A DNA stretch of 58,346 nucleotides from assembly GCA_043803945.1 (NCBI GenBank), contig JAZDJN010000059.1, forward strand, positions 1-58,346, in the 5' to 3' direction. The stretch comes from a bacterium. GTDB lineage: Bacteria; Bacteroidota; Ignavibacteria; UBA10030. The notes under the pieces are model-generated. The model searched no databases, had not been told where the DNA came from, and saw only the letters and a program-made list of their open reading frames with translations. The translations under genes were made by a program, and so were the position numbers. Below, in pieces: positions 35,225 to 55,671 of the stretch; positions within the stretch are counted from its first letter, which is position 1; every line of letters starts with the position of its first letter.

Positions 35225-36613
35225 TTATTCTGATTCTCCTGGTTTTGAGAGCTTTATTTTGTACTGCTTCATCTTCGAAAAGAGTAAACGGCGGTGAATA
35301 TCGAGAATCTCGGCAGCCTTTGTCCTGTTCCAGTCGGCTTGTTCGAGAGCACGGAGGATGAGGCGCTTTTCCACATCTTCAATCGTCTTCTTGAAGGGTA
35401 TCTCCTCCTGAGTGAGGAGCTCTTTTGGCAGAATGTCCTTACCGGCACGAATACTCATAGGAAGATGCTCAAGCGTAATAATGCCGCTGTTGGAAAAGAC
35501 AATTGCATGTTGGATGACATTCTCAAGTTCTCTGATGTTTCCGGGCCAGCCATAGGCCTGGAATTTTTCAATCACAGGAAGCGATACAGCCAGAATTTTT
35601 CCTTCACCATGCTTTTGCAGGAAATGATCAATGAGGTAGGGTAAATCGCTGAGCCGGTCCCGTAATGATGGGACTTTCAGGTGAATGACATTCAAACGAT
35701 AGAGCAGATCATCGCGAAACCTTCCTGACTTGATCTCTCTATTCAGGTCCTTATTAGAAGCCGCAAGAATTCGGACATCGACTGTCAACGTTTCTTTTCC
35801 CCCTACGCGCTCAAATGTTTTTTGCTGCAGCACACGCAGCAGCTTCATCTGCAGGGTGAGGGGCATATTATTGATTTCGTCAAGGAAGAGTGTCCCCCCG
35901 TTCGCAAGTTCAAATCGCCCCTGGCGTTGGGCAATGGCTCCTGTGAAGGAGCCTTTCTCATGACCAAAGATCTCACTCTCCAGTAATGTTTCCGGCAGCG
36001 CCCCGCAATTAATTTTTATGAAGGGCCTGTCCCGCCTCAGCGAATGGCGCTGGATGGCATCTGCAATGAGTTCTTTCCCGGTTCCGCTTTCACCTTCGAT
36101 GAGCACCGGCGTGTCGGTCTGAGAAACCTTGCCGATGGTTTTATAAATCTCCTGCATCGCCGGGCTAGTCCCAACAATCAAATCCTGCTCAATCTTGGCT
36201 TTTTGTCCAGAGACTCGTGCGCGAAGATCGCGCACCTCGTTGAGCAAGTCGTTATGGGTAATTGCCCGCCGAATGATTAAAAGGAGTTCATCGAGGTCGA
36301 ATGGTTTTTCAAGATAATCGAATGCACCAATCTTCATTGCCCGGATCGCACGTTCGCTTGTGCCGTAGGCCGTGAACACAATGACACTGGTTTCCGGAAC
36401 CTGTTTCTTCACTTCTTGAAGCACCGAAAAACCATCGAGAACTGGGAGATTAATATCAAGGAGAAGTACAGGCGGGTGCTGGTTCTGAACCGTTGCGAGA
36501 GCATCCGGGCCGTTGACGGCAAGAAGCACCTCAAATCCCTCCTCCGTTAATACGTCGAAGAGATTTTTCCGCATTATCGGATCGTCGTCAGCGATGAGAA
36601 TAGTATTATTCAT
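35225..36613 (-). CDS. sigma54-dependent response regulator (NtrC/AtoC family)
   Basis: Receiver (ADDD, LLDINLP), GESGTGKE, ESEIFGHEKGSFTGA, WPGNIREL, Fis-type HTH. Confidence 0.95.
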   Translation of the reverse strand: MNNTILIADDDPIMRKNLFDVLTEEGFEVLLAVNGPDALATVQNQHPPVLLLDINLPVLDGFSVLQEVKKQVPETSVIVFTAYGTSERAIRAMKIGAFDYLEKPFDLDELLLIIRRAITHNDLLNEVRDLRARVSGQKAKIEQDLIVGTSPAMQEIYKTIGKVSQTDTPVLIEGESGTGKELIADAIQRHSLRRDRPFIKINCGALPETLLESEIFGHEKGSFTGAIAQRQGRFELANGGTLFLDEINNMPLTLQMKLLRVLQQKTFERVGGKETLTVDVRILAASNKDLNREIKSGRFRDDLLYRLNVIHLKVPSLRDRLSDLPYLIDHFLQKHGEGKILAVSLPVIEKFQAYGWPGNIRELENVIQHAIVFSNSGIITLEHLPMSIRAGKDILPKELLTQEEIPFKKTIEDVEKRLILRALEQADWNRTKAAEILDIHRRLLFSKMKQYKIKLSKPGESE

Positions 36614-38165
36614 TGGTCGTTATGTTCTGATTCAGTGGATGGAGAGGCAGTGTGATCTGACATATTGTGCCTTCTCCATTATGTTGTAAAAACTCCAGAG
36701 TGCCTCCATGGGAGCGAATAATTTCGTAGGAGATGCTTAAACCAAGTCCGGCCCCATGCTCCTTGGTTGTAAAAAATGGTTCAAAGATTTTTTCCTTTTT
36801 ATCAACAGAAATTCCGCTGCCGGTATCCTGGATCACGACATGGACGGAGTCTGTTGCAGGGTGGAACTCTGATCGCATCGTAATTTGGCCTCCGGCCGGA
36901 GTCGCTTCGAATGCATTGGTGCAGATGTTGAGAATGACCTGCTCGATAGCGGTTGGATCGAGATACGGCTGCGGAAGGTCAGCGGTAAGGTGTGCTTCCA
37001 GGGTCACCAGTTTATTTTCTGCATCAGGTTGGATGAGAGCGAGTACTTGTTCGATAATGCGGTTCACATCGGATGGTTGTTTCCGCTGGGCCACCGGCCG
37101 CGAGAAAACCAGCAATCGTTTTACCAGATCGGAGAGGCGGTTAATTTCATCGAGAACAAGCCTTAGTGAAGGCTCGGTGATTGTGGTGGATGGTTCTTCC
37201 GAGGGTGAATCCTTCTGAAGTTTACGCTGCCACATCTGCATGCGGGTTTTGATATTCGCAAGCGGAGTTTTTACCTCGTGTGCAACGCGTGCAACGAGTT
37301 TTCCAAGTCCGGCAAGTTTTGCTCGCTGCTGTAACTCTCGTTCCAGTTCCTCCCGTTCGCGCTGGTCCCGGGCGAGTGCATCAACCATCTTATTGATTGA
37401 TCGGGTGATCGTACCGAACACACCCCGCTTTGACTGGAATCGAAATGAAGGATTTTCCTCAAGCTGCTCTAGTCCCAGGCGGATTTCCTCAACGCGTTTC
37501 CGCAGGCTCCAGGAGACGAAGATCGCGATGGCAAACGCCAGAAGAGAGAAGAGGGCAGCAAATGCAAAAATATTGCTCAGGTTGTGAATCGGCAGCGAGC
37601 GTTCGATATGTGTCCGGGCCCATGCGGCGCCAACAATCTCGCCATCGACCTGGAGTGGTATTGTTGTCAACGGAAAAATCGCAGGGTCAAATTGATGAAG
37701 CCGTGTGATCTGTTTTTCATCGAGCACAGTCTCAAGAATTTGATCCTTGATAATCTGGTATGAACGGGGGGGAGGACCAAATGCTGGTTTTGGTGCAGGT
37801 GACGTTGGATAGGCGTATCCCAGAAAGTCTCCAACACCCGTAAAATAGTAGCCTCCCTCTGCACCTTCAAAAAATGAAAGTTCTGAGGAGGTGATTGCTG
37901 TGAGAATTGAATCAACCCGTTTCTCTTCTATTCGTGTCAGCTCCGAGCGGTTAAAAAAATCCGATTTCTTCAATGACCGGAGAAGATTCTCAATATCCCG
38001 AACGAGCTGGTGGGCCGCCGCCTGTGTCAGTTGTTCATTGCTCTGAATGATCTGCTGAGTCGACTGTTCAAATGTGGAGATAATATAAAGCGTCGTTGCG
38101 CCGATGAGGATGACGAAGAGGGTGGCGATTCCGAGTGCCTTTGTGCGCAGATTGAGCCTTTGCAT
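36606..38165 (-). CDS. Membrane sensor histidine kinase
   Basis: Two TMs flanking a periplasmic domain; H-box VAHEVKTPL; NAFEA, DTGSGI, PFFTTK, GAGLGL. Confidence 0.95.
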   Translation of the reverse strand: MQRLNLRTKALGIATLFVILIGATTLYIISTFEQSTQQIIQSNEQLTQAAAHQLVRDIENLLRSLKKSDFFNRSELTRIEEKRVDSILTAITSSELSFFEGAEGGYYFTGVGDFLGYAYPTSPAPKPAFGPPPRSYQIIKDQILETVLDEKQITRLHQFDPAIFPLTTIPLQVDGEIVGAAWARTHIERSLPIHNLSNIFAFAALFSLLAFAIAIFVSWSLRKRVEEIRLGLEQLEENPSFRFQSKRGVFGTITRSINKMVDALARDQREREELERELQQRAKLAGLGKLVARVAHEVKTPLANIKTRMQMWQRKLQKDSPSEEPSTTITEPSLRLVLDEINRLSDLVKRLLVFSRPVAQRKQPSDVNRIIEQVLALIQPDAENKLVTLEAHLTADLPQPYLDPTAIEQVILNICTNAFEATPAGGQITMRSEFHPATDSVHVVIQDTGSGISVDKKEKIFEPFFTTKEHGAGLGLSISYEIIRSHGGTLEFLQHNGEGTICQITLPLHPLNQNITTNE

Positions 38166-38208
38166 AGAGCATAATAGAGAGATTTATGCTAAGTTTCAAA
38201 ATCCAAAT

Positions 38209-38263
38209 AATGCTCTCACTTGTAAATGCAGCTATGTTGCCGGGATTTGTTTGTGAGAGCATT
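38209..38263. promoter_or_regulatory. Candidate activator (UAS) site
   Basis: Perfect 11-bp inverted repeat AATGCTCTCAC (38209-38219) / GTGAGAGCATT (38253-38263) in the divergent intergenic region. Confidence 0.45.
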
Positions 38264-38378: not shown

Positions 38379-38514
38379 GCAATTCTATGTTTGGAGTGTG
38401 CCTCATTGTTTCCTTTCATCCTCTATGAGGAACGGAAGTCGAAACGCTATTCAAGCGAAAAAACACATCAACGTCTGACGGTCCTGCATTGTGGTGAGAA
38501 TTCTTGCGCTGTGT

Positions 38515-38927
38515 CTCAATCTGGAATTGAACTTGGATATCTCCTCGTAAACAATCAATTGATGCTGAATGATTCGGATCTCGACGGTGCGGCGAATTAT
38601 CGTTCAACAAGTCTTGCCGCTATTATCCATGGGGAGAAATCTTCACTGGCTCAGTGGATCAGAGGGAAGCGGAGCTTTGGATCTCTCTTAGAGAAGTACG
38701 GCTATTCAACTGTCCCGAGCCCAGCGCATCCGAATCCGGAAGGGGAGACGTACTTCAGCGGTGGATACAATCTGGAGCAGCATAGTGCATTTTCCGGCAA
38801 AGTCATCACCGGCATTCAGGTAGAGCTGCCAACCGGATTGCGTGAGGATGACAACAAACGGAAAAAGTTTGCACAAGCATTTGTGGACTCGATTCTTGAG
38901 TATTTAAAGTATCTTGGATTGGGATGA
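38515..38927 (+). pseudogene. 5'-truncated Zn-amidohydrolase (N-formylglutamate amidohydrolase-like), paralog of the 53776 N-domain
   Basis: IELGYLL..RG..SFGSLLE..GY..VPS..YFSGGYN..H..GIQVE..LREDDNKRKKFA aligns with the 53776 protein, but the APHGG and DLHGH motifs are missing. Confidence 0.7.
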
Positions 38928-39049: not shown

Positions 39050-40093
39050 ATGAAAAACCTTACTATTGTTATCCTTCTTGCTCTGCTGAGTTCAGCAGCG
39101 TGGACACAAGTGAAACTGCCGCATTATGAAGGCTTTAATTATCCAACTGCATCGCCCCTGGGAGGGCAAGGGGGCTGGGTTTTCAACAACTCCGGAGATT
39201 CCATCTTTGTCTCAGCCGGAAATCTCAGTTATTCAGGCTTCCCTGCTTCATCCGGCAATATGATTAAGTTTGATGGGGCTGGAATGGATCCGACAAAGCG
39301 ATTTGATTCAACAGCAACAGGGTCTGTCTATTTTTCATTCCTGGTGAAAGTAACAAGTCTTGGATCACTCAATGCGACCGGCGGATATTTTGCAGGCTTC
39401 TACAATACTGTCACAGGTACCACAACAGGAGTTCCGGTATGGACAAGACTTGATGGCGACAGCTTTGACTTCGGCATCAGTACGCGAATTACAACACCGG
39501 TTTCATGGTCCTCCCTACAATCTTTGAACACCACGTATCTCATCGTTGCCGCGTACACATTTGTCGAAGGAAGTACAAACGATTCTGCGAAGTTATGGAT
39601 CAATCCACCCGCTTCCACATTTGGCAAAACAGAACCCGCTCCCACATTAGCAGCAGTCAATACGACAACCGATTTGGCAAGTGTTATGCGATTTATGATC
39701 AGACAGGATGCTGCAACCTTGACACCTTTTATTGAGATGGATGAGCTCAGAATTGGCACGAAATGGGCAGAGGTGACGTCGGCGATCGCAGCAACGCATG
39801 TCGCTGAGAACGACGGGCGCATGGCCCCGGGCGAATTTCGTCTAGACCAGAATTATCCAAACCCCTTTAACCCTTCAACAACGATCCGATTTGCGATTGA
39901 AGCAACAAGTAATGTTTCAGTCGCGATTTCCGATATGCTCGGCAGGGAAATAACAACACTGGTCAATGAGACCCTTACTCCAGGCGCGTACTCCATAAAA
40001 TGGGATGCTCTCTCTTGCCCAAGCGGTGTCTATTTCTATACTGTGCGATCAGGCAACGCGTCTGCAACCAGGCGCATGCTACTGATGAAATAA
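39050..40093 (+). CDS. T9SS-secreted protein (347 aa) with a jelly-roll-like domain
   Basis: GGAGG RBS, signal peptide, DELRIGTKWAEV, type-A CTD. Confidence 0.88.
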   Translation: MKNLTIVILLALLSSAAWTQVKLPHYEGFNYPTASPLGGQGGWVFNNSGDSIFVSAGNLSYSGFPASSGNMIKFDGAGMDPTKRFDSTATGSVYFSFLVKVTSLGSLNATGGYFAGFYNTVTGTTTGVPVWTRLDGDSFDFGISTRITTPVSWSSLQSLNTTYLIVAAYTFVEGSTNDSAKLWINPPASTFGKTEPAPTLAAVNTTTDLASVMRFMIRQDAATLTPFIEMDELRIGTKWAEVTSAIAATHVAENDGRMAPGEFRLDQNYPNPFNPSTTIRFAIEATSNVSVAISDMLGREITTLVNETLTPGAYSIKWDALSCPSGVYFYTVRSGNASATRRMLLMK

Positions 40094-40201: not shown

Positions 40202-42895
40202 ATGAATTATTCAACGTATTTTCCTTCAATGCGATGGCTCTCGCTGGCCATGCTTTTCCTTTTGGCAGCCACGAGCTACGCCGGCATCTATGGTAAAATT
40301 GTCGGCAAAGCCATTGATAAAAAAACCGGTGAAGTAATCCCCTCCGTGAATGTGCTTCTCGAAGGAACATCCATTGGAGGCGTAACTGATCTTGAAGGAC
40401 GCATCACGATCATCAATGTCCCGCCCGGCACCTACCAGGTGCGCGCGACAATGATCGGGTACGCTCCCCAGATTGTTACCAAGGTGGTTATCCGCGCAGA
40501 CCTGACAACAACGGTCCAATTCGACATGACTGAATCGGTTGTTCAGGGAAGGGAGGTTGTCGTCACTGCCGAACGCCCCATGATCAACAAAGATGAAACA
40601 TCCAAGATGTCTATCATCTCTTCTGAAATATTCTCTGATCTTCCGGTCGTAAGTTTCCAGCAGGTCGTTGCTTTGCAGGCGGGATTCATTACCGATGCCA
40701 GCGGCGAATTGCATGCTCGAGGGGGACGCAGCAATGAAGTGGTGTACCTTGTCGATGGTGTTGCAACTCGTGACCCGATGTCGGGCGGCATGGGAACCCA
40801 GCTTGACAAATATGCCATCCAGGAGCTGCAGGTGCTCACCGGCGGTTTCAGTGCCGAGTATGGTCAGGCTCTCTCTGGTGTCGTGAACATCGTCACAAAA
40901 GAGGGGGGCGCCAGATATTCAGGGAGGATTGAATTCGAGTCGAGTCAATTCAATCCCTCTCCCTACCATAACGTTGATGCACTTGCGAACGATTATATGG
41001 GAGTTGATGCAGCAGGTGTTCATAAACCCCGGATCGATGATAAAGGGAGGCTCATACTCGATATTCCATCGGCGTATCAAGGACAAACACTCGACGGAAC
41101 ACCGGCACTTTTCCCCGATGTTGACTATCTCGGTCAGTTGTCGCTCATCCTCAGCGGTCCTCTCCCTTTTGTGCCGGAGCTAAAGTTCTTCGCTACAGCA
41201 CGGATGGAAAATGCTCTCAGCCAGCTTCCATGGGGATACAATAAAGAACGTGAGACCAATCTCAAGCTCACCTATTCACTCGGCAATTGGAAATTCAGTC
41301 TGGCGGATCGAAGGTTTTGGCGTGCCAATAAATTCTATTCTCATGCCTGGAAATATCTTCCCGAAGGATATCCTAGCCGCGAGGAACAAACTTCCCGAGA
41401 CAACTTTTCCATCAACTACTTTCCGAGCACTGAAACATACTACACCTTGAATGTCGTCTACAACTATCGGCATTTCCGCCTTTACACTCCAGGCAAGTAT
41501 GCAATTTTCTCGGATGATGGTATCCTGTTAGAATCAAATTATGTCAAAAATTCGGGAAATCAATTTATTCAAGGAGGCGATCTGGGTGATTATACGGAGA
41601 ATAGACTTGGAACACTCATCGCAAAAATTGACCTGACCCATCAATTCAATAAGTATAATCTTGTGAAATTGGGGACGGAAGTTACCACCTATGACATTAA
41701 GAGATTAGATTACCAGCAACCGTGGAGCGGCGGATTCTGGGCATACGATAATACCCACCGCAATCCTATGGAGGTCGCCGCATACGTCCAGGACAAACTG
41801 GAATTCAGTTCATTCCTCGTCAACGCCGGCATTCGCCTGGACTATGTTGATGTGAGAGATAAACGCTGGATCGATGTGACGACGCCGGGCGGCTATAAAG
41901 ATGAAGTAACAAAAAAGTGGATTGCAACAAATGAAATTGATACTGAGCCATTCCTCCAAGTCAGTCCACGTCTTGGAATTGCTTTCCCAATCACTGAGTC
42001 CACGGTATTTTACAGCTCCTATGGACATTTCTTCCAACGTGCAGATTACACGGAAATGTACACGCTCCGCGATCCTTCAGTGAATGCAGCTCTTGTCGGA
42101 AATCCCGCTATTGAACCTCAGCGGACTGTTGCGTTCGAGTTCGGTGTCAAACAACAGTTGAGCGACAATTATTCGATTGATGTCGGTGCATACTTCAAGG
42201 ATATCACAAATCTTGTCGGCAGTACGTATCACGCTCTCTTTCCCTACGCCTATACCATCTACGATAATTCCAATTATGGCAAAGTCAACGGCGTCGATCT
42301 CACGGTGCGCAAGCGGATGAGTGATTACTTCAGTGGAAGTGTGACATACACCTATTCGGTTGCACGTGGGAACGAATCGGATCCTTCAGAGGGATACCTT
42401 GACTACAGGGGTTCGACGGCGATCCTGCGGCCCAAGCGTGTCTTTTATCTGGACTTCGACCGGCGCCATGTCGTGTCGGGTCTTCTGAATATTTCCTTGC
42501 CGGAAAATTTCGGACCGGTGTTGTTTGGAATCTATCCGTTCGAAAATTTGAACACGAATTTTGTGGTCCAGCTTGCAAGCGGCCTCCCGTATACTCCGAA
42601 TACATTGGAAGATGGAGATCAGCTTATCGTTGAGAAGAATTCGGGTCGAAAAGGAGGCACGTCCCAAATTGATATGCGCCTTGAGCGAATTGTAAAAATA
42701 TCCGATGTCCGCTGTTCTGCTTTCTTGAAAATCATTAACCTCTTTGATGCAATCAATCCGCAGTTGGTATGGACTGCGACGGGTGATTCGTGGGATGGCG
42801 GACCTATTACGCAGAATACTCCTGATCGGCAGCGGAATCCTGGGAGCGTTGATGTTCGCCGGAGAATCCAGGTCGGCATACGAATTGACCTTTGA
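40202..42895 (+). CDS. TonB-dependent receptor
   Basis: Carboxypeptidase-like N-domain (GKIVGKAIDKKTGE), plug RGGRSNEVVYLVDG..GGFSAEYGQALSGVVNIVTKEG, beta-barrel ending GIRIDL. Confidence 0.93.
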   Translation: MNYSTYFPSMRWLSLAMLFLLAATSYAGIYGKIVGKAIDKKTGEVIPSVNVLLEGTSIGGVTDLEGRITIINVPPGTYQVRATMIGYAPQIVTKVVIRADLTTTVQFDMTESVVQGREVVVTAERPMINKDETSKMSIISSEIFSDLPVVSFQQVVALQAGFITDASGELHARGGRSNEVVYLVDGVATRDPMSGGMGTQLDKYAIQELQVLTGGFSAEYGQALSGVVNIVTKEGGARYSGRIEFESSQFNPSPYHNVDALANDYMGVDAAGVHKPRIDDKGRLILDIPSAYQGQTLDGTPALFPDVDYLGQLSLILSGPLPFVPELKFFATARMENALSQLPWGYNKERETNLKLTYSLGNWKFSLADRRFWRANKFYSHAWKYLPEGYPSREEQTSRDNFSINYFPSTETYYTLNVVYNYRHFRLYTPGKYAIFSDDGILLESNYVKNSGNQFIQGGDLGDYTENRLGTLIAKIDLTHQFNKYNLVKLGTEVTTYDIKRLDYQQPWSGGFWAYDNTHRNPMEVAAYVQDKLEFSSFLVNAGIRLDYVDVRDKRWIDVTTPGGYKDEVTKKWIATNEIDTEPFLQVSPRLGIAFPITESTVFYSSYGHFFQRADYTEMYTLRDPSVNAALVGNPAIEPQRTVAFEFGVKQQLSDNYSIDVGAYFKDITNLVGSTYHALFPYAYTIYDNSNYGKVNGVDLTVRKRMSDYFSGSVTYTYSVARGNESDPSEGYLDYRGSTAILRPKRVFYLDFDRRHVVSGLLNISLPENFGPVLFGIYPFENLNTNFVVQLASGLPYTPNTLEDGDQLIVEKNSGRKGGTSQIDMRLERIVKISDVRCSAFLKIINLFDAINPQLVWTATGDSWDGGPITQNTPDRQRNPGSVDVRRRIQVGIRIDL

Positions 42896-46966: not shown

Positions 46967-47056
46967 AACCACTGCGCCAGGCGCACATGTCCGCCCTGCC
47001 TGCGGCAGGCAGGCGTCTGTTTGGCGGATCAGCCTCTGGCTGAGAAGGACACAAAG
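46967..47056. repeat. Nested cluster of short palindromic repeats
   Basis: TGCGCCAGGCGCA; TCCGCC..GGCGGA enclosing CCTGCCTGC-G-GCAGGCAGG; TCAGCCTCTGGCTGA. Confidence 0.65.
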
Positions 47057-47227: not shown

Positions 47228-48289
47228 ATGGCACTGGTAATGTTGAATTCGACAACGAAACGCGGTAATAGTTTTTTGTTGAGAGTAGCGATTGGTATTG
47301 GAGTTGGTGTACTCAGTGCATTTCTATTGACTCAATCTTTTGCACAGGGTGGAGCGAAGATCCAACAACAGCACTTGTTCCAGCGTGACTCCATTACTAT
47401 CCTCATCACTGACTCGGGATTGGGCGGGCTTTCCGTCTGTGCTGAGCTGGAAAAACGATTGGAGAGCTATCGGGCATTTCGTCAGGTGCGGCTCATTTTT
47501 GTCAATGCCCTTCCCGATGCATCTCAGCCGTACAATGGGATGCAGAACAAGCAAGAGCAGCTTCGTGTTTTTGATGACGTTCTCACCGGACTGAATGCTG
47601 GTTTTCATCCGGATGTTATCCTGATTGCCTGCAATACCTTGTCCGTGTTGTTTCCAGAGACCCGGTTTGCGCAATCCGCAACCATCCCGGTGAAGAGCAT
47701 CGTCGAAGCCGGTGCCCGGGTTCTGGCTGAGAAGGTGAGGAAAAATAATAATTCACAAGTCATCATCTTTGGCACAGAAACAACAATTCGTTCCGGAGCA
47801 TATCAGCGGCTGCTGATGGCAGCCGGTGTATCGAAGGATCGAATTACAGTACAGGCCTGCCATCTTCTGGAGAGTGAAATTCAGACAAACCCGACAAGTG
47901 ATATTGTGTCGAATTTGATCGATATGTATACGTCTGAAGCTCTGGAGAAGACGACGAACAAAGGAATGTCTGCGTATATAGCGGGGCTCTGCTGCTCTCA
48001 CTATGGTTACAGTTCTAATATGTTTCAGCAGACACTCAAGCGCCAGCTTGGCAGCGATTGTGATCTGGTAAATCCTAATGAGTCCATGGTTGATTCGTTT
48101 TTCGAGTCACGTCCCATCCGAATATGGGAGTCGACGGCGATTTCTGTCGAAGTCGTTTCCTGTGTTCGGTTCAGTCCGGAAGAGGTTAGTTCAATCAGTA
48201 CTGCGGTAGAACCGGTCTCACATAAGACTGCCGTCGCATTGCAAGGATATCGGTTTGATAAGAATCTTTTTTCCTTTAAGACTAAGTAA
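47228..48289 (+). CDS. Glutamate-racemase-like protein with an N-terminal signal peptide
   Basis: MurI-type motifs DSGLGGLSV, PY, ACNT, GT..TI, CCSHY; hydrophobic leader ending SFA-Q. Confidence 0.85.
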   Translation: MALVMLNSTTKRGNSFLLRVAIGIGVGVLSAFLLTQSFAQGGAKIQQQHLFQRDSITILITDSGLGGLSVCAELEKRLESYRAFRQVRLIFVNALPDASQPYNGMQNKQEQLRVFDDVLTGLNAGFHPDVILIACNTLSVLFPETRFAQSATIPVKSIVEAGARVLAEKVRKNNNSQVIIFGTETTIRSGAYQRLLMAAGVSKDRITVQACHLLESEIQTNPTSDIVSNLIDMYTSEALEKTTNKGMSAYIAGLCCSHYGYSSNMFQQTLKRQLGSDCDLVNPNESMVDSFFESRPIRIWESTAISVEVVSCVRFSPEEVSSISTAVEPVSHKTAVALQGYRFDKNLFSFKTK

Positions 48290-48319
48290 CACGTGCAACC
48301 ACGATGAGAGACTGACTAC

Positions 48320-49585
48320 GTGTCTATCGAATTGATCATCCTGATCATCATGCTCTCAGTGTTCGCTCTGAGCGTATTTTGGTTCAAACTCCCATCCGGC
48401 GTTGCCCTTGCGCTAGCTGCTCTCATCGGAGCGGTTGTTGGCGGCTATGGTGTGCCGGTACGGCATCTTGTGGAGGGAACGTTTGGATATTTGGATGCGG
48501 TTCTGATCATCGCCACAGCGATGATCTATATGAAGGTTCTTGAACAGAGCGGTGCGTTAGGGACGATCAGTTATCTGATCATGAAATCGTTGCATCGCTG
48601 GCCCACAATGCTCCTTATTTTCATCGCGCTCTTTGTGATGTTCCCCGGCATGATGACCGGACTCTCTTCCGCATGTGTTCTGACAACCGGGGCACTGGTG
48701 GCTCCGGCGTTGCTTGCCATTGGGATTCCCTCCGCTGCGGTTGGTGCCTTCATAGCGGTGATGGCGGTGTTTGGGATGATTGCCCCGCCGATCAATATCC
48801 CGGTGATGATCATCGGCGGCGGAGTCGATATGCCCTACATCGGATTTGAAAAACCGCTCGCACTGGCTTCCTTCCCTCTGGCCATTGTCTGTGCGCTCTA
48901 CTATCGAATCCGTTATGTACGTGCAATAGACATCGATGATGTTCTCTCTCGCCTACAGGGCCCGTTGCATAAGAAGCATGGCTTGAAACTCTTCATTCCT
49001 CTGCTGATTGTTGTCGTGCTGATGCTTGCGGTGCGGATCTTCCCTGAGTATGTGCCGGATATCGGAATCCCCTTCATCTTTTTGTTAGGCAGCATCGCCG
49101 GCCTGGTAACGGGAGAGCGCTTTGAAATCTGGCCGGCAGCGCAACAGGCCATTCGCGGGGCGTTGCCCGTGATGGCAATTCTGATTGGTGTCGGGATGTT
49201 CGTGCAGATAATGACCCTGACGGGAGTGCGGGGATTTCTTGCTGTCAGTGCCTTGAAGCTGCCGCCAGCGTTTCTTTACCTTGGTATTGCAGTCTTCATG
49301 CCGGCGTTCGGTTCTGCATACGCGTCGGCATCTGTCCTCGGCGTGCCGCTGGTCTATGTGTTTTTGGGAAAGAATGAAATTATCGTCACTTCGGCCTTAT
49401 CGCTCATTGCGGGGATCGGCGATTTAATGCCTCCTCCCATGCTGCTCTGCGCGTTTGCCTCGCAGATTGTCGGGGAGAAGAACCAATTCCGCATTCTTAA
49501 GCAATGCATTCCCATGATCATCCTTTCATTATGTGTCGGGATTGCGATGATACTCTTCGCGAATGAAGTGGCCTTGATGTATTAA
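48320..49585 (+). CDS. DctM/IT-superfamily multi-TM permease
   Basis: 421 aa, highly hydrophobic; GMIAPPINIPVMIIGGG, GDLMPP. Confidence 0.85.
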   Translation: MSIELIILIIMLSVFALSVFWFKLPSGVALALAALIGAVVGGYGVPVRHLVEGTFGYLDAVLIIATAMIYMKVLEQSGALGTISYLIMKSLHRWPTMLLIFIALFVMFPGMMTGLSSACVLTTGALVAPALLAIGIPSAAVGAFIAVMAVFGMIAPPINIPVMIIGGGVDMPYIGFEKPLALASFPLAIVCALYYRIRYVRAIDIDDVLSRLQGPLHKKHGLKLFIPLLIVVVLMLAVRIFPEYVPDIGIPFIFLLGSIAGLVTGERFEIWPAAQQAIRGALPVMAILIGVGMFVQIMTLTGVRGFLAVSALKLPPAFLYLGIAVFMPAFGSAYASASVLGVPLVYVFLGKNEIIVTSALSLIAGIGDLMPPPMLLCAFASQIVGEKNQFRILKQCIPMIILSLCVGIAMILFANEVALMY

Positions 49586-49632
49586 CAGAGAGATGGCAAG
49601 AAGAGTCATAGAAAGGAAATTCAAAAAAGACT

Positions 49633-49779
49633 ATGCTTCATTGGGTCTATATCGGTATTGCAGTTCTTGTGCTGGGATTGGTGTTGCGAGAATTGTATGG
49701 TGAACGGAATTGGAAAAACCAGATTGCTCTTGCACTGGTTGTCATTCCACTTCTTCTTCGAATTCTCCACATCAAGTAA
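49633..49779 (+). CDS. 48-aa two-TM small membrane protein (absent from the ORF track)
   Basis: My translation: MLHWVYIGIAVLVLGLVLRELYGERNWKNQIALALVVIPLLLRILHIK*; fills the operon gap, stop 9 nt before the next ATG. Confidence 0.75.
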   Translation: MLHWVYIGIAVLVLGLVLRELYGERNWKNQIALALVVIPLLLRILHIK

Positions 49780-49788
49780 AAAGGAGCT

Positions 49789-50907
49789 ATGGAACGACAT
49801 CATCTTCGCGCAACTGTTTTCCTGATTGGAACCGTACTCCTCTGTTCCATTGCTGGATGGGAATTTTTGCAGATGCATCATCAAGATAAAATTCTACCTG
49901 GCTCCGGAGTCACGGGTACACGAACGTTGAGCTCATACTCTTCCACGCTCGCCGGAACTCAATCCGATGTTTTGATGTATGAGTTGAACAGCGGAAAACC
50001 GGGAGCAACAATCTTGGTGCTCGGCGGAACGCATCCCAACGAAGCTGCCGGATTTATGGCTGCAGTGCTGCTCATTGAACATGTAGTGATGAAGGAGGGA
50101 CGGTTATTAGTAATTCCCCAGGTGTGCGGCAATGGATTTACATGCACCGATCCGCTGGAAGCATCTCCCCAATCATTTGCACTTCAGTCAAAATCGGGAG
50201 AGAGACAGTTCAGATTTGGTTCACGCGGCAGCAATCCCATTGAGTCCTGGCCGGATCCGATTGTCTACCTCCATCATCCTTCAGGGCAGCAATTGTCTGG
50301 AAACGAAATTAGAAATCTCAACCGCTCCTATCCGGGCCGCGTCGATGGAACAATCACAGAGCAAATCGCCTATGCTGTTATGCAACTCATTAAGCAGGAG
50401 AAAGTCGATCTTGCGTTCGATCTCCACGAGGCTGCGCCGGAGATTCCGATTATCAATGCCATTGTGACTCACGAAAAAGGAAAGGAGATCGGTGCCAGCG
50501 CACTGTTGAATCTCGAGTTTGAAAATTTGCAATATGCCCTGGAAATGTCCCCTCCGAATTTCCATGGACTCAGTCATCGGGAATGGGGCGATTGGTCAAC
50601 CACCTATCCCTTTCTCATGGAAACGAGCAATCCAATCCAGGGTCGCCTGCGAGGACCAACAAGTGCTGCACTAATTCTTGAAGGACTCGATAAACGGTAT
50701 CAGGAGGCTGCAAAGCTTGTCACTGTTCGAATTACCTATGATGAGAAAGGGGAACCTCTGGCACGCCGTGTTGGCCGGCACTTGCGTGGATTGCAGGCGA
50801 TTTTCATCGCATTTCAGGAGGCGTTTCCCGACAAACGGATTACAGTGAATGGCATACCATCGTATGAGGAAATTGTGCAACGAGGAGTCGGTGACTATTT
50901 GCAATAG
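49789..50907 (+). CDS. M14/succinylglutamate desuccinylase-aspartoacylase family Zn hydrolase, N-terminally anchored or exported
   Basis: GGTHPNE, NLNRSYPG, DLHE; AAGGAG RBS; N-terminal hydrophobic segment. Confidence 0.88.
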   Translation: MERHHLRATVFLIGTVLLCSIAGWEFLQMHHQDKILPGSGVTGTRTLSSYSSTLAGTQSDVLMYELNSGKPGATILVLGGTHPNEAAGFMAAVLLIEHVVMKEGRLLVIPQVCGNGFTCTDPLEASPQSFALQSKSGERQFRFGSRGSNPIESWPDPIVYLHHPSGQQLSGNEIRNLNRSYPGRVDGTITEQIAYAVMQLIKQEKVDLAFDLHEAAPEIPIINAIVTHEKGKEIGASALLNLEFENLQYALEMSPPNFHGLSHREWGDWSTTYPFLMETSNPIQGRLRGPTSAALILEGLDKRYQEAAKLVTVRITYDEKGEPLARRVGRHLRGLQAIFIAFQEAFPDKRITVNGIPSYEEIVQRGVGDYLQ

Positions 50908-50943
50908 ATATTCAACCGTATGAACATAACAACTGGAGAATGT

Positions 50944-51501
50944 ATGAAAACACGAATCGTGGTTATGGCAATTGCAATCGTCTTGCTGGTGGTATTCCAA
51001 AGCGTGGTTTGCCTGGCGCAATTAAAAGCAAAATTTGAGCAGCCTGTTCTGGTGACCTCAGCGGGACAGAGTGCAGACGTGACCATAGCCGGTATGTTGT
51101 TTAAGAGAGCGAAAATCGTTGCGAACACTGTACCGATGGCAAAAGTCGGCGATCTGGATGGTGTGAAAACTCTCGTGATCGTCGCTGGATTCAGTTCCAA
51201 GGGGTTGGGCGCCGCAGGGATCAGCCGCGAGCAGGAACTCGCCCGCGTGAAATCTATTCTTGCCACAGCCAAAGAGAAAAAGATCAAAATTCTCACACTC
51301 CATCTTGGAGGCAAAGCACGAAGGGGAAATCAGTCCGATGACTTCAATGCCCTTGCGGCTGAAGCTTCAATCCACCTCATCATTGTGAAGCAGGGTGATG
51401 AAGATCAATTCTTCTCGAAGATTGCAGGAGAGAAAAAAATCCCAATCGATCTCGTCGATAAAATTGCTGATGCCATGACCCCGCTCGGTAAAATATTTTG
51501 A
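50944..51501 (+). CDS. Exported DUF6305-like protein
   Basis: VLVTSAGQSAD..GFSSKGLGAAGIS..E..R..LHLGGKARRG; signal peptide from ATG 50944. Confidence 0.75.
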   Translation: MKTRIVVMAIAIVLLVVFQSVVCLAQLKAKFEQPVLVTSAGQSADVTIAGMLFKRAKIVANTVPMAKVGDLDGVKTLVIVAGFSSKGLGAAGISREQELARVKSILATAKEKKIKILTLHLGGKARRGNQSDDFNALAAEASIHLIIVKQGDEDQFFSKIAGEKKIPIDLVDKIADAMTPLGKIF

Positions 51502-51596
51502 ACCTTGATGCTGGTACCTGAGTTTGGTGAAGGATTCTCCCCCTGCTCAGGGAGAGCAGTGTTCATTTAAGCATACTTGATTCTGGAGATGAAATC

Positions 51597-53492
51597 ATGA
51601 GTGTTCCGCGAAAAACTCGTCAGTACATTCTGTCGATCGTACTGTTTACGCTGGTTCCTCTTCTGCTGGTAGCTCAGCAGCTTTCTGTTGGAGCAAGAGG
51701 AAAGGAAGCCGTCGGTTCCAGGGTGATGGTAGCGACAGCACATCCGCTTGCGTCTGAGGCAGCGATTGCGATGGTTCAAAAAGGGGGGAATGCAGTTGAT
51801 GCAGCGGTCGCGGCAGCATTTGCTATCGGTGTCGTTGAGCCGGACGGTTCCGGAATTGGCGGAGGCGGGGGAATGCTGATTCGTCTGAAGAATGGATCGA
51901 ATATCTATATTAATTATTATCAACAAGCCTCTTCGAGGGTGAATGAAAATGGTTTTGTTGGAGGGAGAGACAATCAGACTGCCAAGGCAATATTGATACC
52001 CGGTACAGTCGCAGGACTCGCATTCGCAGTGAAAGAATACGGAACATTGCCCCTTGCCACCGTGCTTGAACCTGCCATCCGCTTGGCTGAGCAGGGTTTC
52101 CCCATCGATGAAACATTGAGCAAGATTATTCTAGATAATGTATCACTTCTGCAAAAACATCCGGCGACAGCATCGGTCTATTTACGCGATGGTTTTCCGC
52201 TCGCCGAAGGCGATCTCATTCAGCAGAAAGAACTGGCGAAGACTTTACGGATTGTTGCAGAACAGGGTGTCAAGGGATTCTATTCAGGCGATGTTGCACG
52301 AACAATTGTTGATGAAATCGTTTCCAGAGGCGGCATGGCAACGTTAGAGGATTTTCAGAATTGCAGTCCAACAGTAAGTGAACCGCTCCTGGGGAGTTAT
52401 CGGGGGTATACGATTATTTCCGCACCGCCGCCGCATTCGGGCGCAACCGTAATTGAAGCATTGAATGTTCTGGAAAATGTCGGCTTGAAGAAGATGGGAT
52501 ATTATGCAAATTCGACCGATGCATTCCATCTGCTTGCAGAAACTGTACGCCGTGTCTATGCCGATCGCGTTGCTACTCTTGCCGATCCACGCTTCGAGTA
52601 TGTCCCGATTCGCGGACTGCTTTCCAAGGATTTTGCCAAATCTCGATTCGCTGATATTAGTATGGCTGCTGTTAATCCACCGGAATATCGGCAGACCAAG
52701 GCGGGAAACCCCTTATCGTATGATACGGTTGATCAGAAAAGTTCACTCAAAAAAACTCCCGATCAGATGCCGGAGGCAAAACGCAGAGATAACCAGATTG
52801 ATGGAGATTCCTCCCCATCTTCTCGCCGGGGGGCGAAGGATATGAGTATGAATATTGCTGGTCTCAAGAATAAGAGAATTTTGAATTCGTTGAATGCGAA
52901 GACGATCCATGCTGTTGATGATATTCCTTTTGAAGCAGCGGGCGGCCATACAACGCATATCTCCATCATGGATCGAGATGGGAATATGGTCTCGCTTACA
53001 CAAACGCTGGGTACATTTTTTGGCTCCGGAGTCACCGCTGCTGGCGTCCTGCTAAATAATGCCATGTCGAATTTTGCTGCAACAGCACGGGTGAACAGCA
53101 TCCAGCCGAATAAACGGCCGAGAAGTTCCATTGCTCCAACCATTCTTCTGAAAGATGAAAAACCTTTCATGGTCGTTGGATCACCAGGAGCCACCCGGAT
53201 CATGGCCACTGTCATTACGCTCATCGTCAATGCGGTCGATTATGGGCTCGATGCAGCCGCCACCAACCGTGCTCCAAGATTTCTCTGCCAACGTTCTGAT
53301 GATGCCCTTTCACTTGAATCCCGGTTCACTCCCGAGGTGCAGGAAGGGATGAAAAAGAAGGGGCATAAGCTTCAATTATATGGCGATTATGATCTCTTCT
53401 TCGGCGGAGCCCAGATTATTCTTGTGGATCCATCCGGTATAATGCATGGTGTTGCCGATCCTCGACGGGGTGGGACTGCGATGGGATATTAG
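51597..53492 (+). CDS. ggt: Gamma-glutamyltransferase family protein (atypical, lid-less)
   Basis: GGNAVDAAVAAAFAIGVVEP..SGIGGGG, autoprocessing H-TTHIS, KRPRSS, ADPRRGG; signal peptide. Confidence 0.92.
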   Translation: MSVPRKTRQYILSIVLFTLVPLLLVAQQLSVGARGKEAVGSRVMVATAHPLASEAAIAMVQKGGNAVDAAVAAAFAIGVVEPDGSGIGGGGGMLIRLKNGSNIYINYYQQASSRVNENGFVGGRDNQTAKAILIPGTVAGLAFAVKEYGTLPLATVLEPAIRLAEQGFPIDETLSKIILDNVSLLQKHPATASVYLRDGFPLAEGDLIQQKELAKTLRIVAEQGVKGFYSGDVARTIVDEIVSRGGMATLEDFQNCSPTVSEPLLGSYRGYTIISAPPPHSGATVIEALNVLENVGLKKMGYYANSTDAFHLLAETVRRVYADRVATLADPRFEYVPIRGLLSKDFAKSRFADISMAAVNPPEYRQTKAGNPLSYDTVDQKSSLKKTPDQMPEAKRRDNQIDGDSSPSSRRGAKDMSMNIAGLKNKRILNSLNAKTIHAVDDIPFEAAGGHTTHISIMDRDGNMVSLTQTLGTFFGSGVTAAGVLLNNAMSNFAATARVNSIQPNKRPRSSIAPTILLKDEKPFMVVGSPGATRIMATVITLIVNAVDYGLDAAATNRAPRFLCQRSDDALSLESRFTPEVQEGMKKKGHKLQLYGDYDLFFGGAQIILVDPSGIMHGVADPRRGGTAMGY

Positions 53493-53562
53493 GTCAACAG
53501 CTTCGTTGATGCATTCAAAAATCGTATCTACTCAGCGAGATAAAAAATATCATTCTTTTTTT

Positions 53563-53640
53563 TGACCCCCTCTTAAATCTCCCCCTCTGAGGGGGAGTTA
53601 TATAAATCCCTCGCCTCTAAGGGGAGGTGTGGTGGGGTCA
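53563..53640. repeat. Composite C-tract/G-tract palindromic repeat
   Basis: TGACCCC..[CTCCCCCTCTGAGGGGGAG]..[CCTCGCCTCTAAGGGGAGG]..GGGGTCA. Confidence 0.6.
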
Positions 53641-53775
53641 GGCTTTGAGATGTACGATATTCATTTTGTGCAGACCTTTATGAATCACTATTCATCCTGA
53701 GTAATTTCAAAAAAACTATTGTATGTTAAAATAGAAATTATGTTGTAGATCGATGTTGTACTGTTTTGAAACGTT

Positions 53776-55671
53776 ATGTGTTTATTGAAAGAACAGATGA
53801 CCCACTTCGATAACTACGCTTCTGAAAGATCACAAAAAAGATTATGGAGAGGGCTACTTACCATTCTCCTGGTTTTAATCACTGAGTGCACATTCGCTGC
53901 ATTTGTTGACACGACCTTCATTCCCGGGAAATCCTATTTCGGCCGCAATGAGTATATCGAATATATCGCCGGGGACACGCCATATATCCTTTCTGCGCCC
54001 CACGGGGGTATTCTGAAGCCGGTTGAAATCCCAGATCGGGATAGTGGAGAGACAGTGATGGATAGTAATGTTCGAGAACTGGCTCGGTCGGTAAGTGAGG
54101 CAGTCTTTGCCCGCGAAGGAAAGTACCCCCATATCATCATCTGCCATCTTAGTCGTATAAAACTCGATGCGAACAGAGATCTTCCTCAAGCAACGAAGGG
54201 AGGCAATCCTGCTGCGGTTCAAGCATGGAAAGAATTTCAATCCTTTATCGATACAGCTAAACAAACGGTTGTTAAACAGTATGGAAAGGGATTTTACATC
54301 GATCTTCATGGTCATGGCCATCCAAATCAGAGGCTCGAATTAGGGTACATCCTCACCAGCTCAATGCTTTCTTACACCGATGCCGTTCTTGATCAACCCG
54401 CGTATGGAAATGCAAGCAGTATCCGGACGTTGATTCAGTATGCACAACTTCCATTTTCACAATTACTACGCGGCCCCCGAAGCCTGGGAAGTTTCTTTGA
54501 GAATCGCGGCTATCCTGCCACACCGAGCGAAATGCAGCCTAGTCCAAATGATCCAAGCTTTTGGTCGGGAGGATACAATACACAACGGCACGGTTCAAGT
54601 TCTGGCGGCCCGATCAGTGGTGTTCAGATTGAATGCAATATGACAGGTGTGCGTGATACGGATAAGAACAGGAAAAAATTTGCAGAAACGATTGCTGAAG
54701 TGTTCGACTATTACACCGCTCTCAATCTTTTCCGAAATCCGGTTGCAACCTCAAAACTGGCTCTCAACGAAATACTCTTTGATATTCCAGCAGACGATCC
54801 GGCGACACCGTTGTTGGAAGGGGATGTCAATGGCGATGGTGTTCGAAGTCCACGGGGGGATGAATTTATTGAGATTGTGAACGCAGGAACGACCGACGCA
54901 GACATCAGCGGGTATCGGATTTTGGAGAAGAATGCCTATCCAATTTTTACATTTCCTCAAAACGTAGTTCTGAAACCGAAGGAATATACCGTCGTTTTTG
55001 GGGGAGTAGATTCGAAGGGCTTTGGAAAACAATTTCCACCATCGCTGAAGCTCTTTGCGGCACAATGGGGCACCCCAGACTCGGGATTCTATTACTCGTC
55101 GAGCAAGACTAATCTGCTTGATACAACTGATAACGTTATTCTCTTCAATCCAAGAGCAAACGACATCATGGATGAAGTGCTTTGGGGCGCAGCGAAACCT
55201 CGCACGAAGAAAGGTGCGAAGCTGTTGAAACCATTTACTCTCCGTGGGGATAGCATCGCCGGCCCCATCGCTCAATCGGTAACGCGGAGTCCGGATGGCA
55301 CCGGACTCTGGGCACTGCATAAAACCGTCAGCCCCGTTGGAGGCGCATACTCGCCGGGCTTCTCGGCGACAACGGTCGTATCGACCACAAAAAATCCTGA
55401 ATCTACCGAAGCATATTCACTCTCACAAAACTATCCCAATCCTTTCAATGCCAGTACGCGGTTCGAAATCCAAATGCCTGAACAAAGCGATGTGTCTCTG
55501 ACAGTCATCGACCTCCTGGGCCGCCGAGTGGGCGAGATACTGCATAAGACATTGGAGCCGGGAACTCATCGTCTCCAATGGGATGCCGGGGTATTATCGA
55601 GCGGTGTGTATATTATTCAGCTCATGACCCGCACTCATACATTGAGACAGCGTGTCTTATTGATCAAATAG
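53776..55671 (+). CDS. T9SS-secreted Zn-amidohydrolase (N-formylglutamate amidohydrolase-like) with a lamin-tail-like domain
   Basis: SAPHGG, KLDANR, DLHGH, QIE; LNEILFD..GDVNGDG..DEFIEIVN..DISGY; type-A CTD; start may be 53797. Confidence 0.85.
   Translation: MCLLKEQMTHFDNYASERSQKRLWRGLLTILLVLITECTFAAFVDTTFIPGKSYFGRNEYIEYIAGDTPYILSAPHGGILKPVEIPDRDSGETVMDSNVRELARSVSEAVFAREGKYPHIIICHLSRIKLDANRDLPQATKGGNPAAVQAWKEFQSFIDTAKQTVVKQYGKGFYIDLHGHGHPNQRLELGYILTSSMLSYTDAVLDQPAYGNASSIRTLIQYAQLPFSQLLRGPRSLGSFFENRGYPATPSEMQPSPNDPSFWSGGYNTQRHGSSSGGPISGVQIECNMTGVRDTDKNRKKFAETIAEVFDYYTALNLFRNPVATSKLALNEILFDIPADDPATPLLEGDVNGDGVRSPRGDEFIEIVNAGTTDADISGYRILEKNAYPIFTFPQNVVLKPKEYTVVFGGVDSKGFGKQFPPSLKLFAAQWGTPDSGFYYSSSKTNLLDTTDNVILFNPRANDIMDEVLWGAAKPRTKKGAKLLKPFTLRGDSIAGPIAQSVTRSPDGTGLWALHKTVSPVGGAYSPGFSATTVVSTTKNPESTEAYSLSQNYPNPFNASTRFEIQMPEQSDVSLTVIDLLGRRVGEILHKTLEPGTHRLQWDAGVLSSGVYIIQLMTRTHTLRQRVLLIK

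Follow-up and report, generated by a model that had tools for sequence, protein, structure and literature searches.

Nearly all that is known of the biology of poly-gamma-glutamate (PGA) comes, to our knowledge, from Bacillus and a small number of other monoderms. In Bacillus subtilis the gene pgdS follows the synthase genes pgsBCAE, and gamma-glutamyltransferase (GGT) degrades the producer's own PGA for glutamate late in growth. Loci in which pgs or cap genes stand with associated hydrolases are already known; PgsB/PgsC-type systems are predicted in most phyla in the accessible text of one report (PMC5542703), and PghP-type hydrolases are described for Bacillus and its phages in that of another (PMC4497714). 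Here we describe a gene cluster at positions 35225..55671 of contig JAZDJN010000059.1, the whole of which (58,346 nt) is the window that was analysed, by means of its open reading frame (ORF) list and of Pfam and NCBIfam scans. The cluster encodes a sigma54 two-component pair, a TonB-dependent receptor and other surface proteins, a MurI-like racemase, a DctM-like permease with a 48-residue membrane protein (tm48), an AstE-like zinc hydrolase, a DUF6305 protein, a GGT, and a putative FGase-family zinc amidohydrolase carrying a sorting domain of the type IX secretion system (T9SS). At a probability of roughly 0.55, we read it as the envelope half of a PGA system, which breaks down, racemises and recaptures PGA made by the cell itself and which is conserved in the Fibrobacteres-Chlorobi-Bacteroidetes (FCB) group. 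Several of its components have not been studied before. A literature search, for which subscription journals were mostly out of reach, found no paper on DUF6305 or TIGR04332 and no relevant paper joining PGA to TonB-dependent or SusC/SusD transport.

The evidence for the link to PGA comes from related loci. An alignment of DUF6305 proteins was used to fetch loci from one-genome-per-species contigs; the best 80 of the 279 stretches encoding a DUF6305 relative were retained together with flanks of up to 10 kb, and were annotated by tblastn with the window proteins. By their bin labels these loci belong to Ignavibacteria, Bacteroidales (Marinilabiliaceae, Prolixibacteraceae, Rikenellaceae), Zixibacteria, Calditrichota and Krumholzibacteria, and the counts made on them are lower bounds because contig ends cut many of the loci. 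Directly after GGT in a Bacteroidales locus (L045) and in a Zixibacteria locus (L027) there is a Mur-ligase-like gene, a CapC-family gene and a third gene. Their products score as PgsB (TIGR04012, 247.9-249.5 bits against a cut-off of 222.7), PgsC (TIGR04011, 124-126 bits against 96.45) and TIGR04332, the 'poly-gamma-glutamate system protein' (281-284 bits against 100). The count over the 80 loci is 62 for pgsB and 59 each for pgsC and TIGR04332. GGT, PgsB, PgsC and TIGR04332 are consecutive and co-directional in 50 loci, and an eight-gene run that starts with the permease and ends with TIGR04332 is complete in 41, with 8 more in which a tm48 match is missing. The third synthase component is not PgsA/CapA (PF09587), whose place TIGR04332 holds. 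One PGA_cap gene lies elsewhere in the genome of the window (contig C18), unlinked, and this family also matches in 7 of 14 control genomes.

The original prediction, which was made from the letters of the window, had placed the cluster around enzymes of glutamyl and acyl-glutamate chemistry acting on PGA, and had proposed a search for co-occurrence of the genes. Both proposals held up: the synthase genes just counted tie the loci to PGA, and the permease (73/80), tm48 (63/80), AstE-like (77/80) and GGT (76/80) genes recur with DUF6305. A chemistry centred on gamma-glutamyl and N-acyl-glutamate amides is supported by the predicted enzyme families. The run DctM-like permease, tm48, AstE-like, DUF6305 and GGT, which together with its companion genes we call the cassette, is intact in 51 of the 80 loci. 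The FGase-like domain occurs in 41 and the racemase-like gene in 35, and the closest relative (locus L004) has the same layout as the window. Genes that flank the cluster (those for Tex, a DEAD-box helicase and a downstream Asp/Glu racemase, orf168 and orf174) are each found in only 0-1 of the 80. That the cluster is a functional unit is supported by these counts, which show an arrangement hardly due to chance.

At the level of whole genomes the cassette is nested among PGA synthase carriers. In the sample of 401 genomes of the window's phylum, DUF6305 exceeds its cut-off in 9, of which 8 are clear (E 2e-43 or better) and one is borderline at 24.8-25.3 bits; one further match falls below the cut-off. 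Both marginal matches lie in long unrelated frames, in genomes without TIGR04332. TIGR04332 itself is present in 12 of the 401 genomes, and these include all 8 clear DUF6305 genomes. For the phylum of the Zixibacteria locus L027 (201 genomes), DUF6305 was found in 7 and TIGR04332 in 35, and the overlap is 7 of 7. Where a DUF6305 locus has no adjacent pgs genes, 6 of 7 such genomes carry TIGR04332 elsewhere. The pattern is that the cassette is found only with this synthase type, and that the synthase often occurs without the cassette. The scores of TIGR04332 are lower in cassette genomes (about E-66 to E-92) than in genomes without the cassette (about E-88 to E-103), which hints that the cassette may travel with a distinct subclade of this synthase partner. 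The link to PGA is supported, then, both by the pgs genes that adjoin the cassette and by the nesting of genomes; and because the cassette is nested in pgs-carrying genomes and is usually fused to the pgs genes, the polymer handled would most likely be PGA made by the cell itself or by its kin.

Synthase loci that lack DUF6305 look different. Four of these pgsB-pgsC-TIGR04332 loci (L086-L089, in genomes G145, G097, G353 and G089) carry another accessory set, made up of an outer-membrane-barrel-like gene, a lipoprotein-like gene, an LVIVD-repeat gene and giant T9SS proteins, among which are a PKD+PGA_cap+sorting-domain protein and a C25-peptidase-like protein. No match to the barrel, LVIVD or T9SS PGA_cap genes was found by tblastn (E<=1e-4, coverage >=0.4; distant homologues may escape this search) in the window's own genome or in the 80 cassette loci. 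Within the loci searched, the two accessory sets do not overlap.

The window has neither pgsB nor pgsC; its genome has both, on contig C106, where PgsB, PgsC and TIGR04332 all pass their NCBIfam cut-offs and are unlinked to the window cluster. On C106 (loci L084/L085), pgsB-pgsC-TIGR04332 come after genes for another TonB receptor, of 1062 aa, and for a protein of 863 aa, a PorV-like barrel, a protein with a TIG domain and a T9SS protein. Immediately downstream of the pgs genes lie genes for a glycyl-radical enzyme and its activase, a proline-racemase-family protein, a POT peptide transporter and M24 and S37 peptidases, a group that looks like a hydroxyproline or peptide catabolic set. The genome also holds a second, paralogous cassette on contig C87 (locus L003, 5669-10907, minus strand), whose products are a DUF6305 protein (242 aa), a permease (430 aa), an AstE-like protein (391 aa) and a dipeptidase of the C69 family; neither GGT nor pgs genes were found near it. 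A second cassette of this C87 type is also present in locus L005, where it adjoins pgsBC.

Compared with the B. subtilis system, the cluster and its relatives have in common the PgsB and PgsC homologues, an exported GGT without a lid loop, and hydrolase genes that stand beside the synthase in most relatives. The differences are that the cell here is a diderm, that TIGR04332 takes the place of PgsA/CapA, and that no PgdS of the NlpC/P60 type is present. Instead there is a putative FGase-family enzyme, an AstE-like protein with DUF6305, an exported MurI-like racemase, and a DctM-like permease with its 48-aa subunit, as well as TonB receptors, T9SS cargo and a sigma54 pair, and the synthase genes of this genome stand apart from the cluster. 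The capBCADE capsule loci are similar in that 50 of the 80 related loci have a GGT-family gene immediately before the pgsB/pgsC homologues; unlike CapD, the GGT of the window is nearer to ordinary GGTs (E 1e-104 in a search of the PDB, against 1e-47 for CapD). With the SusC/SusD polysaccharide utilisation loci (PULs) of Bacteroidota the cluster shares a surface enzyme, TonB import, periplasmic trimming, an inner-membrane permease and a dedicated sensor, and true SusC-SusD pairs occur inside related Bacteroidales loci. The window, however, has neither SusD nor a carbohydrate-active enzyme, and this type of locus is tied to a polymer synthase, whereas PULs are not. Like a DctPQM transporter of the tripartite ATP-independent periplasmic (TRAP) type, the cluster has a DctM-like large permease followed by a gene for a small membrane partner. 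Unlike one, it has no DctP or TAXI binding protein and no four-helix DctQ, the partner is of 48 residues, and the pair travels with an exported Zn hydrolase and DUF6305. Known enzymes of the FGase family (PF05013) are cytoplasmic and belong to the histidine pathway, whereas that of the window is extracellular and is fused to lamin-tail and T9SS sorting domains.

Features of the cluster (Table 1) can be arranged in a working model, in which we infer the substrate, the order of the steps, the direction of transport (uptake as against export or anchoring) and the physiological role. The sigma54 two-component pair would switch on two units. Proteins of the first unit (the T9SS protein, the TonB receptor, the 998-aa protein and the PorV-like barrel) would bind the gamma-glutamyl polymer or its oligomers and carry them across the outer membrane, and the FGase-family amidohydrolase displayed by the T9SS would cleave the polymer outside the cell. 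In Bacteroidales, SusCD would take the place of the TonB receptor in this passage. The second unit would work in the periplasm and inner membrane, where the lid-less GGT may take glutamate off the free alpha-amino end while the membrane-anchored AstE-like enzyme, together with DUF6305, may remove the C-terminal glutamate. The FGase-like enzyme would likewise act on the C-terminal residue. Action at this end is suggested by the reactions of the two families, since the C-terminal residue is chemically an N-acyl-glutamate whose acyl group is succinyl-like. The exported MurI-like racemase would equilibrate D- and L-glutamate outside the cytoplasm, and the DctM-like permease with its 48-aa subunit would import the glutamate. 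A possible role for the whole could be trimming and size control of PGA, its turnover, and its recapture as a glutamate or nitrogen reserve.

Table 1. Features of the cluster in the window, with strand and the basis of each assignment
Feature	Position	Strand	Basis
NtrC/AtoC-type sigma54-dependent response regulator	35225-36613	-	Pfam Response_reg, Sigma54_activat, AAA_lid_14, HTH_8
Sensor histidine kinase	36606-38165	-	HisKA and HATPase_c
Remnant of a second FGase-like hydrolase, C-terminal half only	38391-38927	+	tblastn matches
T9SS-sorted surface protein, 347 aa, N-domain without known family	39050-40093	+	Por_Secre_tail at 269-343
TonB-dependent outer-membrane receptor	40202-42895	+	N-terminal CarbopepD_reg_2, Plug, TonB_dep_Rec_b-barrel
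998-aa exported protein, no Pfam family	42921-45917	+	Weak T9SS-CTD/PorZ C-terminal match
PorV/PorQ-family outer-membrane barrel	45931-46947	+	NF033709, 185 bits against cut-off 90
Terminator-like hairpin	46995-47013	+	8-bp stem with 6 G-C pairs, then T-rich tail
Exported or membrane-anchored MurI-like glutamate racemase homologue	47228-48289	+	Asp_Glu_race, 40.5 bits against 31
DctM-like (TRAP large-subunit-like) permease	48320-49585	+	PF06808, 31.9 bits against 23.8
tm48, 48-aa membrane protein	49633-49779	+	Two hydrophobic segments
Membrane-anchored AstE/AspA-type (M14-like) Zn hydrolase	49789-50907	+	AstE_AspA_cat PF24827, 33.4 bits against 25
Exported DUF6305 protein	50944-51501	+	PF19823, 165.5 bits against cut-off 25
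Exported GGT	51597-53492	+	TIGR00066, 468 bits against 357.85
T9SS-sorted putative FGase-family Zn amidohydrolase, 631 aa	53776-55671	+	FGase-like domain at residues ~47-321, LTD, Por_Secre_tail

The eleven products that had been named from the sequence alone were all confirmed by the ORF list and by the Pfam and NCBIfam scans, and so was the claim that the cluster has no glycoside hydrolase: glycoside hydrolase and lyase families gave zero Pfam matches among its products. The closest protein matches for the cluster come from Ignavibacteriales-type metagenome bins. Among public sequencing runs, none was listed for 47228-55671, and none with RNA. The minus-strand regulator and kinase genes diverge from a plus-strand run that opens with the 347-aa T9SS protein. 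The hairpin separates the outer-membrane genes from the run that leads from the racemase to GGT, and is a match to consensus only.

Among the enzymes, it is the T9SS-displayed one for which the family assignment changed. It had been likened to the PghP hydrolases of phages, and of this comparison the Zn-hydrolase fold has stood and the family has not. Searches of the PDB by sequence with the N-terminal domain of the enzyme, either alone or as a 24-sequence profile, found nothing meaningful, so that the family was settled by Pfam scans of the orthologues and by comparison of folds. All 24 aligned orthologues match PF05013 at E<=1 (best 2.9e-10), with the orthologue in L045 reaching 31 bits, and in their alignment H76, D131/N133/R134, D176/H178, E188 and E286 are invariant. 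The AlphaFold2 (AF2) model of the domain has a mean pLDDT of 85, and the top matches in a VIA structure comparison are FGase structures, with Z 17.9 for 2odf (205 residues aligned, root-mean-square deviation 3.0) and Z 17.6 for 2q7s. Lower scores were obtained: about 12 with M14 carboxypeptidases, 11.6 with YndL and 11.3 with a phage enzyme, the last two being PGA hydrolases. Membership of the PghP family was rejected, as PF05908 had no match in the window protein (E<=5), in the 24 orthologues (E<=1) or in the genome. By its modelled fold and these scans, the T9SS enzyme is best placed in the FGase family, sharing a fold with PghP and YndL. Most FGase-like orthologues are exported proteins of 300-330 aa without the LTD and sorting domains, and some loci carry both forms. 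Export signals, here and below, were judged by a simple hydropathy test, which finds an N-terminal hydrophobic segment in 40 of 44 FGase-like sequences.

Loss of the lid in B. subtilis GGT and in CapD opens the pocket to polymeric gamma-glutamyl donors, the loop being one that restricts large substrates. The small chain of the window GGT begins at T452, the autoprocessing and catalytic Thr, in the motif TTH, as in solved GGTs. Relative to the small chain of the Escherichia coli enzyme it has an 11-residue gap after small-chain position 48, and there is no gap against the enzymes of B. licheniformis and B. subtilis. This gap in the lid loop was seen in 15 of 15 cassette GGT orthologues, a sample drawn from 65, while of the two further GGT paralogues that this genome encodes, one has a longer loop. 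An N-terminal hydrophobic segment is present in all 66 GGT sequences.

The AstE-like protein has the motifs GGtHpNE (HxxE), RNlNR-YPG, fDlHE and LME, which are conserved in 76 sequences and which presumably have Zn-binding and carboxylate-binding roles. In a PDB profile search it aligns over these motifs to AstE/AspA-family deacylases, including the DoeB deacetylase. Its gene is adjacent to that for DUF6305 in 75 of the 80 loci, and the two stay paired where the permease/tm48 pair has moved away; N-terminal hydrophobic segments were found in 74 of 76 AstE-like and 12 of 12 DUF6305 sequences. The AF2 model of DUF6305 (pLDDT 87) is a three-layer alpha/beta domain for which fold searches gave no decisive functional relative. 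A catalytic role of the SGNH type is not supported, Foldseek having listed SGNH/GDSL hydrolases with high probability but TM-scores of 0.30-0.40, and a wide VIA search returned only generic three-layer alpha/beta folds at Z 7.5-9.7 (ribokinase-like, GT-B and SGNH). A complex of mature DUF6305 with the periplasmic part of the AstE-like protein was modelled with a score of 0.67 (0.67, 0.59 and 0.67 in separate runs), and the best of three controls scored 0.00. A score of 0.67 is attained by 116 of 157 solved complexes and by 2 of 215 mismatched pairs, counts that hold only roughly here because our own alignments were used. The runs agree in at least 97% of contacts, the pLDDT of the partner is 91, and the modelled interface uses the conserved DUF6305 segments 44-55, 84-90 and 122-125. 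The model supports the prediction that DUF6305 binds the AstE-like Zn hydrolase. No solved complex resembling this pair was found in the PDB profile search.

In the racemase-like protein the motifs DSGLGG, ACNT and C-x-H, which we take to be the catalytic (Cys) motifs of a racemase, are conserved in 21 sequences, 20 of which have an N-terminal hydrophobic segment. The permease, to judge from its sequence, is a divergent DctM-type large subunit; it has about 11 hydrophobic segments, and its structure neighbours in the atlas are TRAP large permeases (TM-score 0.94-0.97). The tm48 protein is always of 48-49 aa and its gene lies directly after that for the permease in 59 of the 80 loci, and it is likely to be the small subunit of this permease. 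It is the sole small membrane product of the cluster, in which DctQ, DctP and TAXI gave no Pfam or NCBIfam match.

Conservation of the outer-membrane module depends on the lineage. The TonB receptor, 998-aa protein and PorV-like barrel form the module of Ignavibacteria and Calditrichota loci, whereas SusC (20/80) and SusD (16/80) are found in those of Bacteroidales, where SusC, SusD and a racemase-like gene lie directly after TIGR04332 in 14 of the 80 loci. The run of TonB receptor, 998-aa and PorV-like genes is seen in 7 loci; taken singly, the receptor was found in 10 (7 over at least half its length), the 998-aa protein in 17 (10 likewise) and the PorV-like barrel in 15. The receptor matches the SusC/RagA model TIGR04056 over residues 32-249 only, with 61.5 bits against a cut-off of 368, and by this cut-off it is not a member of the SusC/RagA family. 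Products of the cluster gave no Pfam match to SusD-like families, and SusD-like_2 is present in the related Bacteroidales locus L045. The start of the 998-aa protein was set at 42921, where a signal-peptide-like N-terminus begins, and its neighbours in the atlas are T9SS sorting-domain proteins of Ignavibacteriota, WOR-3 and Zixibacteria. The 347-aa T9SS protein has full-length relatives (52-57% identity) in 4 loci, and elsewhere only its sorting domain is common.

The regulator pair is likewise found with part of the loci only, the sigma54 regulator in 17 of 80 (13 over at least half its length) and the kinase in 19 (13). The best NCBIfam match of the response regulator is AtoC, below the cut-off of that model, and in loci of Zixibacteria, Calditrichota and some Ignavibacteria the cassette has full-length relatives (49-56% identity) at its flank. 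The kinase has hydrophobic segments starting at residues 8 and 193, with an extracytoplasmic loop of about 165 aa between them, and relatives with at least 96% coverage occur in 11-13 loci.

The cassette could instead serve the production and display of PGA and not its breakdown, an explanation that we consider unlikely. The permease would then feed glutamate to the synthase, the racemase would give D-glutamate, GGT would be a CapD-like transpeptidase for anchoring or sizing, the Zn enzymes would trim chain ends, and the TonB/SusCD proteins, the PorV-like barrel and the T9SS proteins would form the exit or anchor. It agrees with this that in 50 of the 80 loci pgsB-pgsC-TIGR04332 come after the cassette on the same strand, and that the SusC-SusD-racemase set after TIGR04332 (14/80) occupies the place of the barrel-like and lipoprotein-like genes of the DUF6305-free pgs loci. 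Cassette-type systems, moreover, show no other visible outer-membrane route, since the barrel-type genes were not found in them by tblastn, and a GGT-family CapD beside capBCA is an established precedent, which the accessible text of PMC5542703 also gives. However, plug-domain TonB receptors and SusCD pairs are generally known only as importers, a periplasmic racemase cannot feed a cytoplasmic ligase unless the D-glutamate is re-imported, and three different exported amidohydrolases with a permease suit breakdown better than anchoring. Furthermore, neither in the window's own genome nor in L004 does the cassette adjoin the pgs genes, and in both it has a regulator pair of its own.

The original prediction had seen in the cluster a PUL-like locus for PGA or D-glutamyl polymers. 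On this view, taken further, it would be a self-contained locus for foraging on polymer made by other organisms, independent of synthesis by the cell. The sigma54 pair, the TonB receptor and the T9SS hydrolase belong to the cluster itself, no pgs gene lies on the 58-kb contig, the closest relative L004 has the same layout, and the lineage-specific swapping of the outer-membrane module resembles the evolution of PULs. If the cassette were purely for scavenging, one would expect to meet it in genomes without PGA synthesis too, but all clear DUF6305 genomes have TIGR04332 (8/8 and 7/7, against backgrounds of 12/401 and 35/201), as do 6 of the 7 genomes with unlinked loci, and the window's own genome carries pgsB-pgsC-TIGR04332. 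We regard foraging on foreign polymer as quite unlikely: the cassette normally stands in one run with PGA synthase genes, and, having no SusD-like gene and a receptor below the SusC/RagA cut-off, the cluster is not a PUL in the SusC/SusD sense either. A more general salvage of small compounds of the gamma-glutamyl or N-acyl-glutamate kind (peptides of the glutathione type, stems of muropeptides, polyglutamate tails of folates or peptides rich in glutamate, for example), with the linkage to pgs only secondary, seems very unlikely. The paralogous cassette on C87, which has a C69 dipeptidase gene but no GGT or pgs gene as its neighbour, would fit such a role, and the GGT, AstE/AspA and FGase families are, as the family names indicate, best known from small substrates. 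Nevertheless, pgs genes are present in 59-62 of the 80 loci, all 15 sampled cassette GGTs have the lid-less form, and small diffusible compounds need neither TonB uptake nor a surface hydrolase.

Several points weigh against the preferred reading of the cluster as the part of a PGA system that dismantles and recaptures self-made polymer. A synthase, three hydrolases and an importer encoded in co-directional runs could form a futile cycle, and the same genes could serve synthesis by supplying glutamate or D-glutamate and by CapD-like anchoring. Because the C87 paralogue adjoins a C69 dipeptidase gene and has no pgs or GGT gene, the four-gene core may handle other glutamate-containing peptides. 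The evidence base consists of the 80 closest of 279 DUF6305 relatives; the sampled genomes are related and not independent, so that the nesting counts overstate the evidence and no probability is attached to them. TIGR04332 was not found in one of the seven genomes with unlinked loci (G401, which may be incomplete). Two of the enzymes fall below the cut-offs of their family models, with 16 bits (E 0.014) against 28.9 for the window's own FGase-like protein in PF05013, and 60.6 bits against an equivalog cut-off of 146.65 for the racemase-like protein in the MurI model TIGR00067. A pattern scan for sigma54 -24/-12 promoters gave 69 matches where 48.7 are expected, and none with both GG and GC in the intergenic regions that were read.

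A more specific form of the same reading can be put forward tentatively, as one that is rather improbable when taken with all its parts. The polyanion PGA would be made and released, either to the outside of the cell or into the periplasm, would act there as a nitrogen or glutamate store or as a cation sorbent, and would be retaken through the TonB/SusCD gate. It would then be dismantled by the surface FGase-family amidohydrolase, by the AstE-like/DUF6305 heteromer working from the C-terminal end and by the periplasmic MurI-type racemase, and the glutamate would be re-imported by a TRAP-like permease without a classical binding protein. If such a make-and-retrieve cycle exists, it would be the first utilisation locus for a non-sugar polymer that the cell makes itself, and the types of enzyme that dismantle the polymer would be ones so far not tied to PGA. 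In a bolder variant, the SusCD/TonB module would also be the exit route of the polymer.

For the handling of PGA by bacteria with two membranes, the cluster and its form fused to the synthase genes give a testable parts list, and it concerns lineages of anaerobic sediments and groundwater: Ignavibacteria, Bacteroidales, Zixibacteria and Calditrichota. On this list are a possible function for DUF6305, a PGA exo-hydrolase that may represent a new class, a racemase of the MurI type that is exported, a TRAP-like permease that has no binding protein, and TonB-dependent transport tied to a polyamide. As PGA is an industrial polymer, the cluster may also yield new enzymes for its degradation.

Some further features lie within or close to the cluster. 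The product of 38391-38927 aligns to residues 185-314 of the FGase-like protein of L045, and its residues 46-177 match the T9SS-displayed enzyme of the window with 38% identity. It is regarded as a truncated remnant because only the C-terminal half is present and there is no room for an N-terminal catalytic half before the kinase gene. It has probably decayed from a duplicate of the short periplasmic FGase-like form that is found beside the long T9SS form in other loci. The downstream Asp/Glu racemase, orf168 and orf174 were dropped as parts of the cluster, being present in 0, 1 and 0 of the 80 loci, respectively. That racemase, at 56686-57390 on the plus strand just beyond the cluster, is cytoplasmic and scores 191 bits against a cut-off of 93 with TIGR00035. 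A 168-aa membrane protein is encoded at 55933-56439 on the plus strand; it has a Cys-rich C-terminal tail (CxxC...CxxC), of which tblastn finds at least 6 paralogues across the genome. On the other side, the sole glycoside-hydrolase-like gene near the cluster (DUF5703_N and GH95-like; 28091-30382, minus strand) is separated from it by the genes for Tex and a DEAD-box helicase. Finally, the 283-nt spacer between GGT and the T9SS hydrolase has, at 53560-53640, two adjacent G/C-rich inverted repeats of the type CCCCCTCTGAGGGGGAG, which may be a terminator or a small repeat element.

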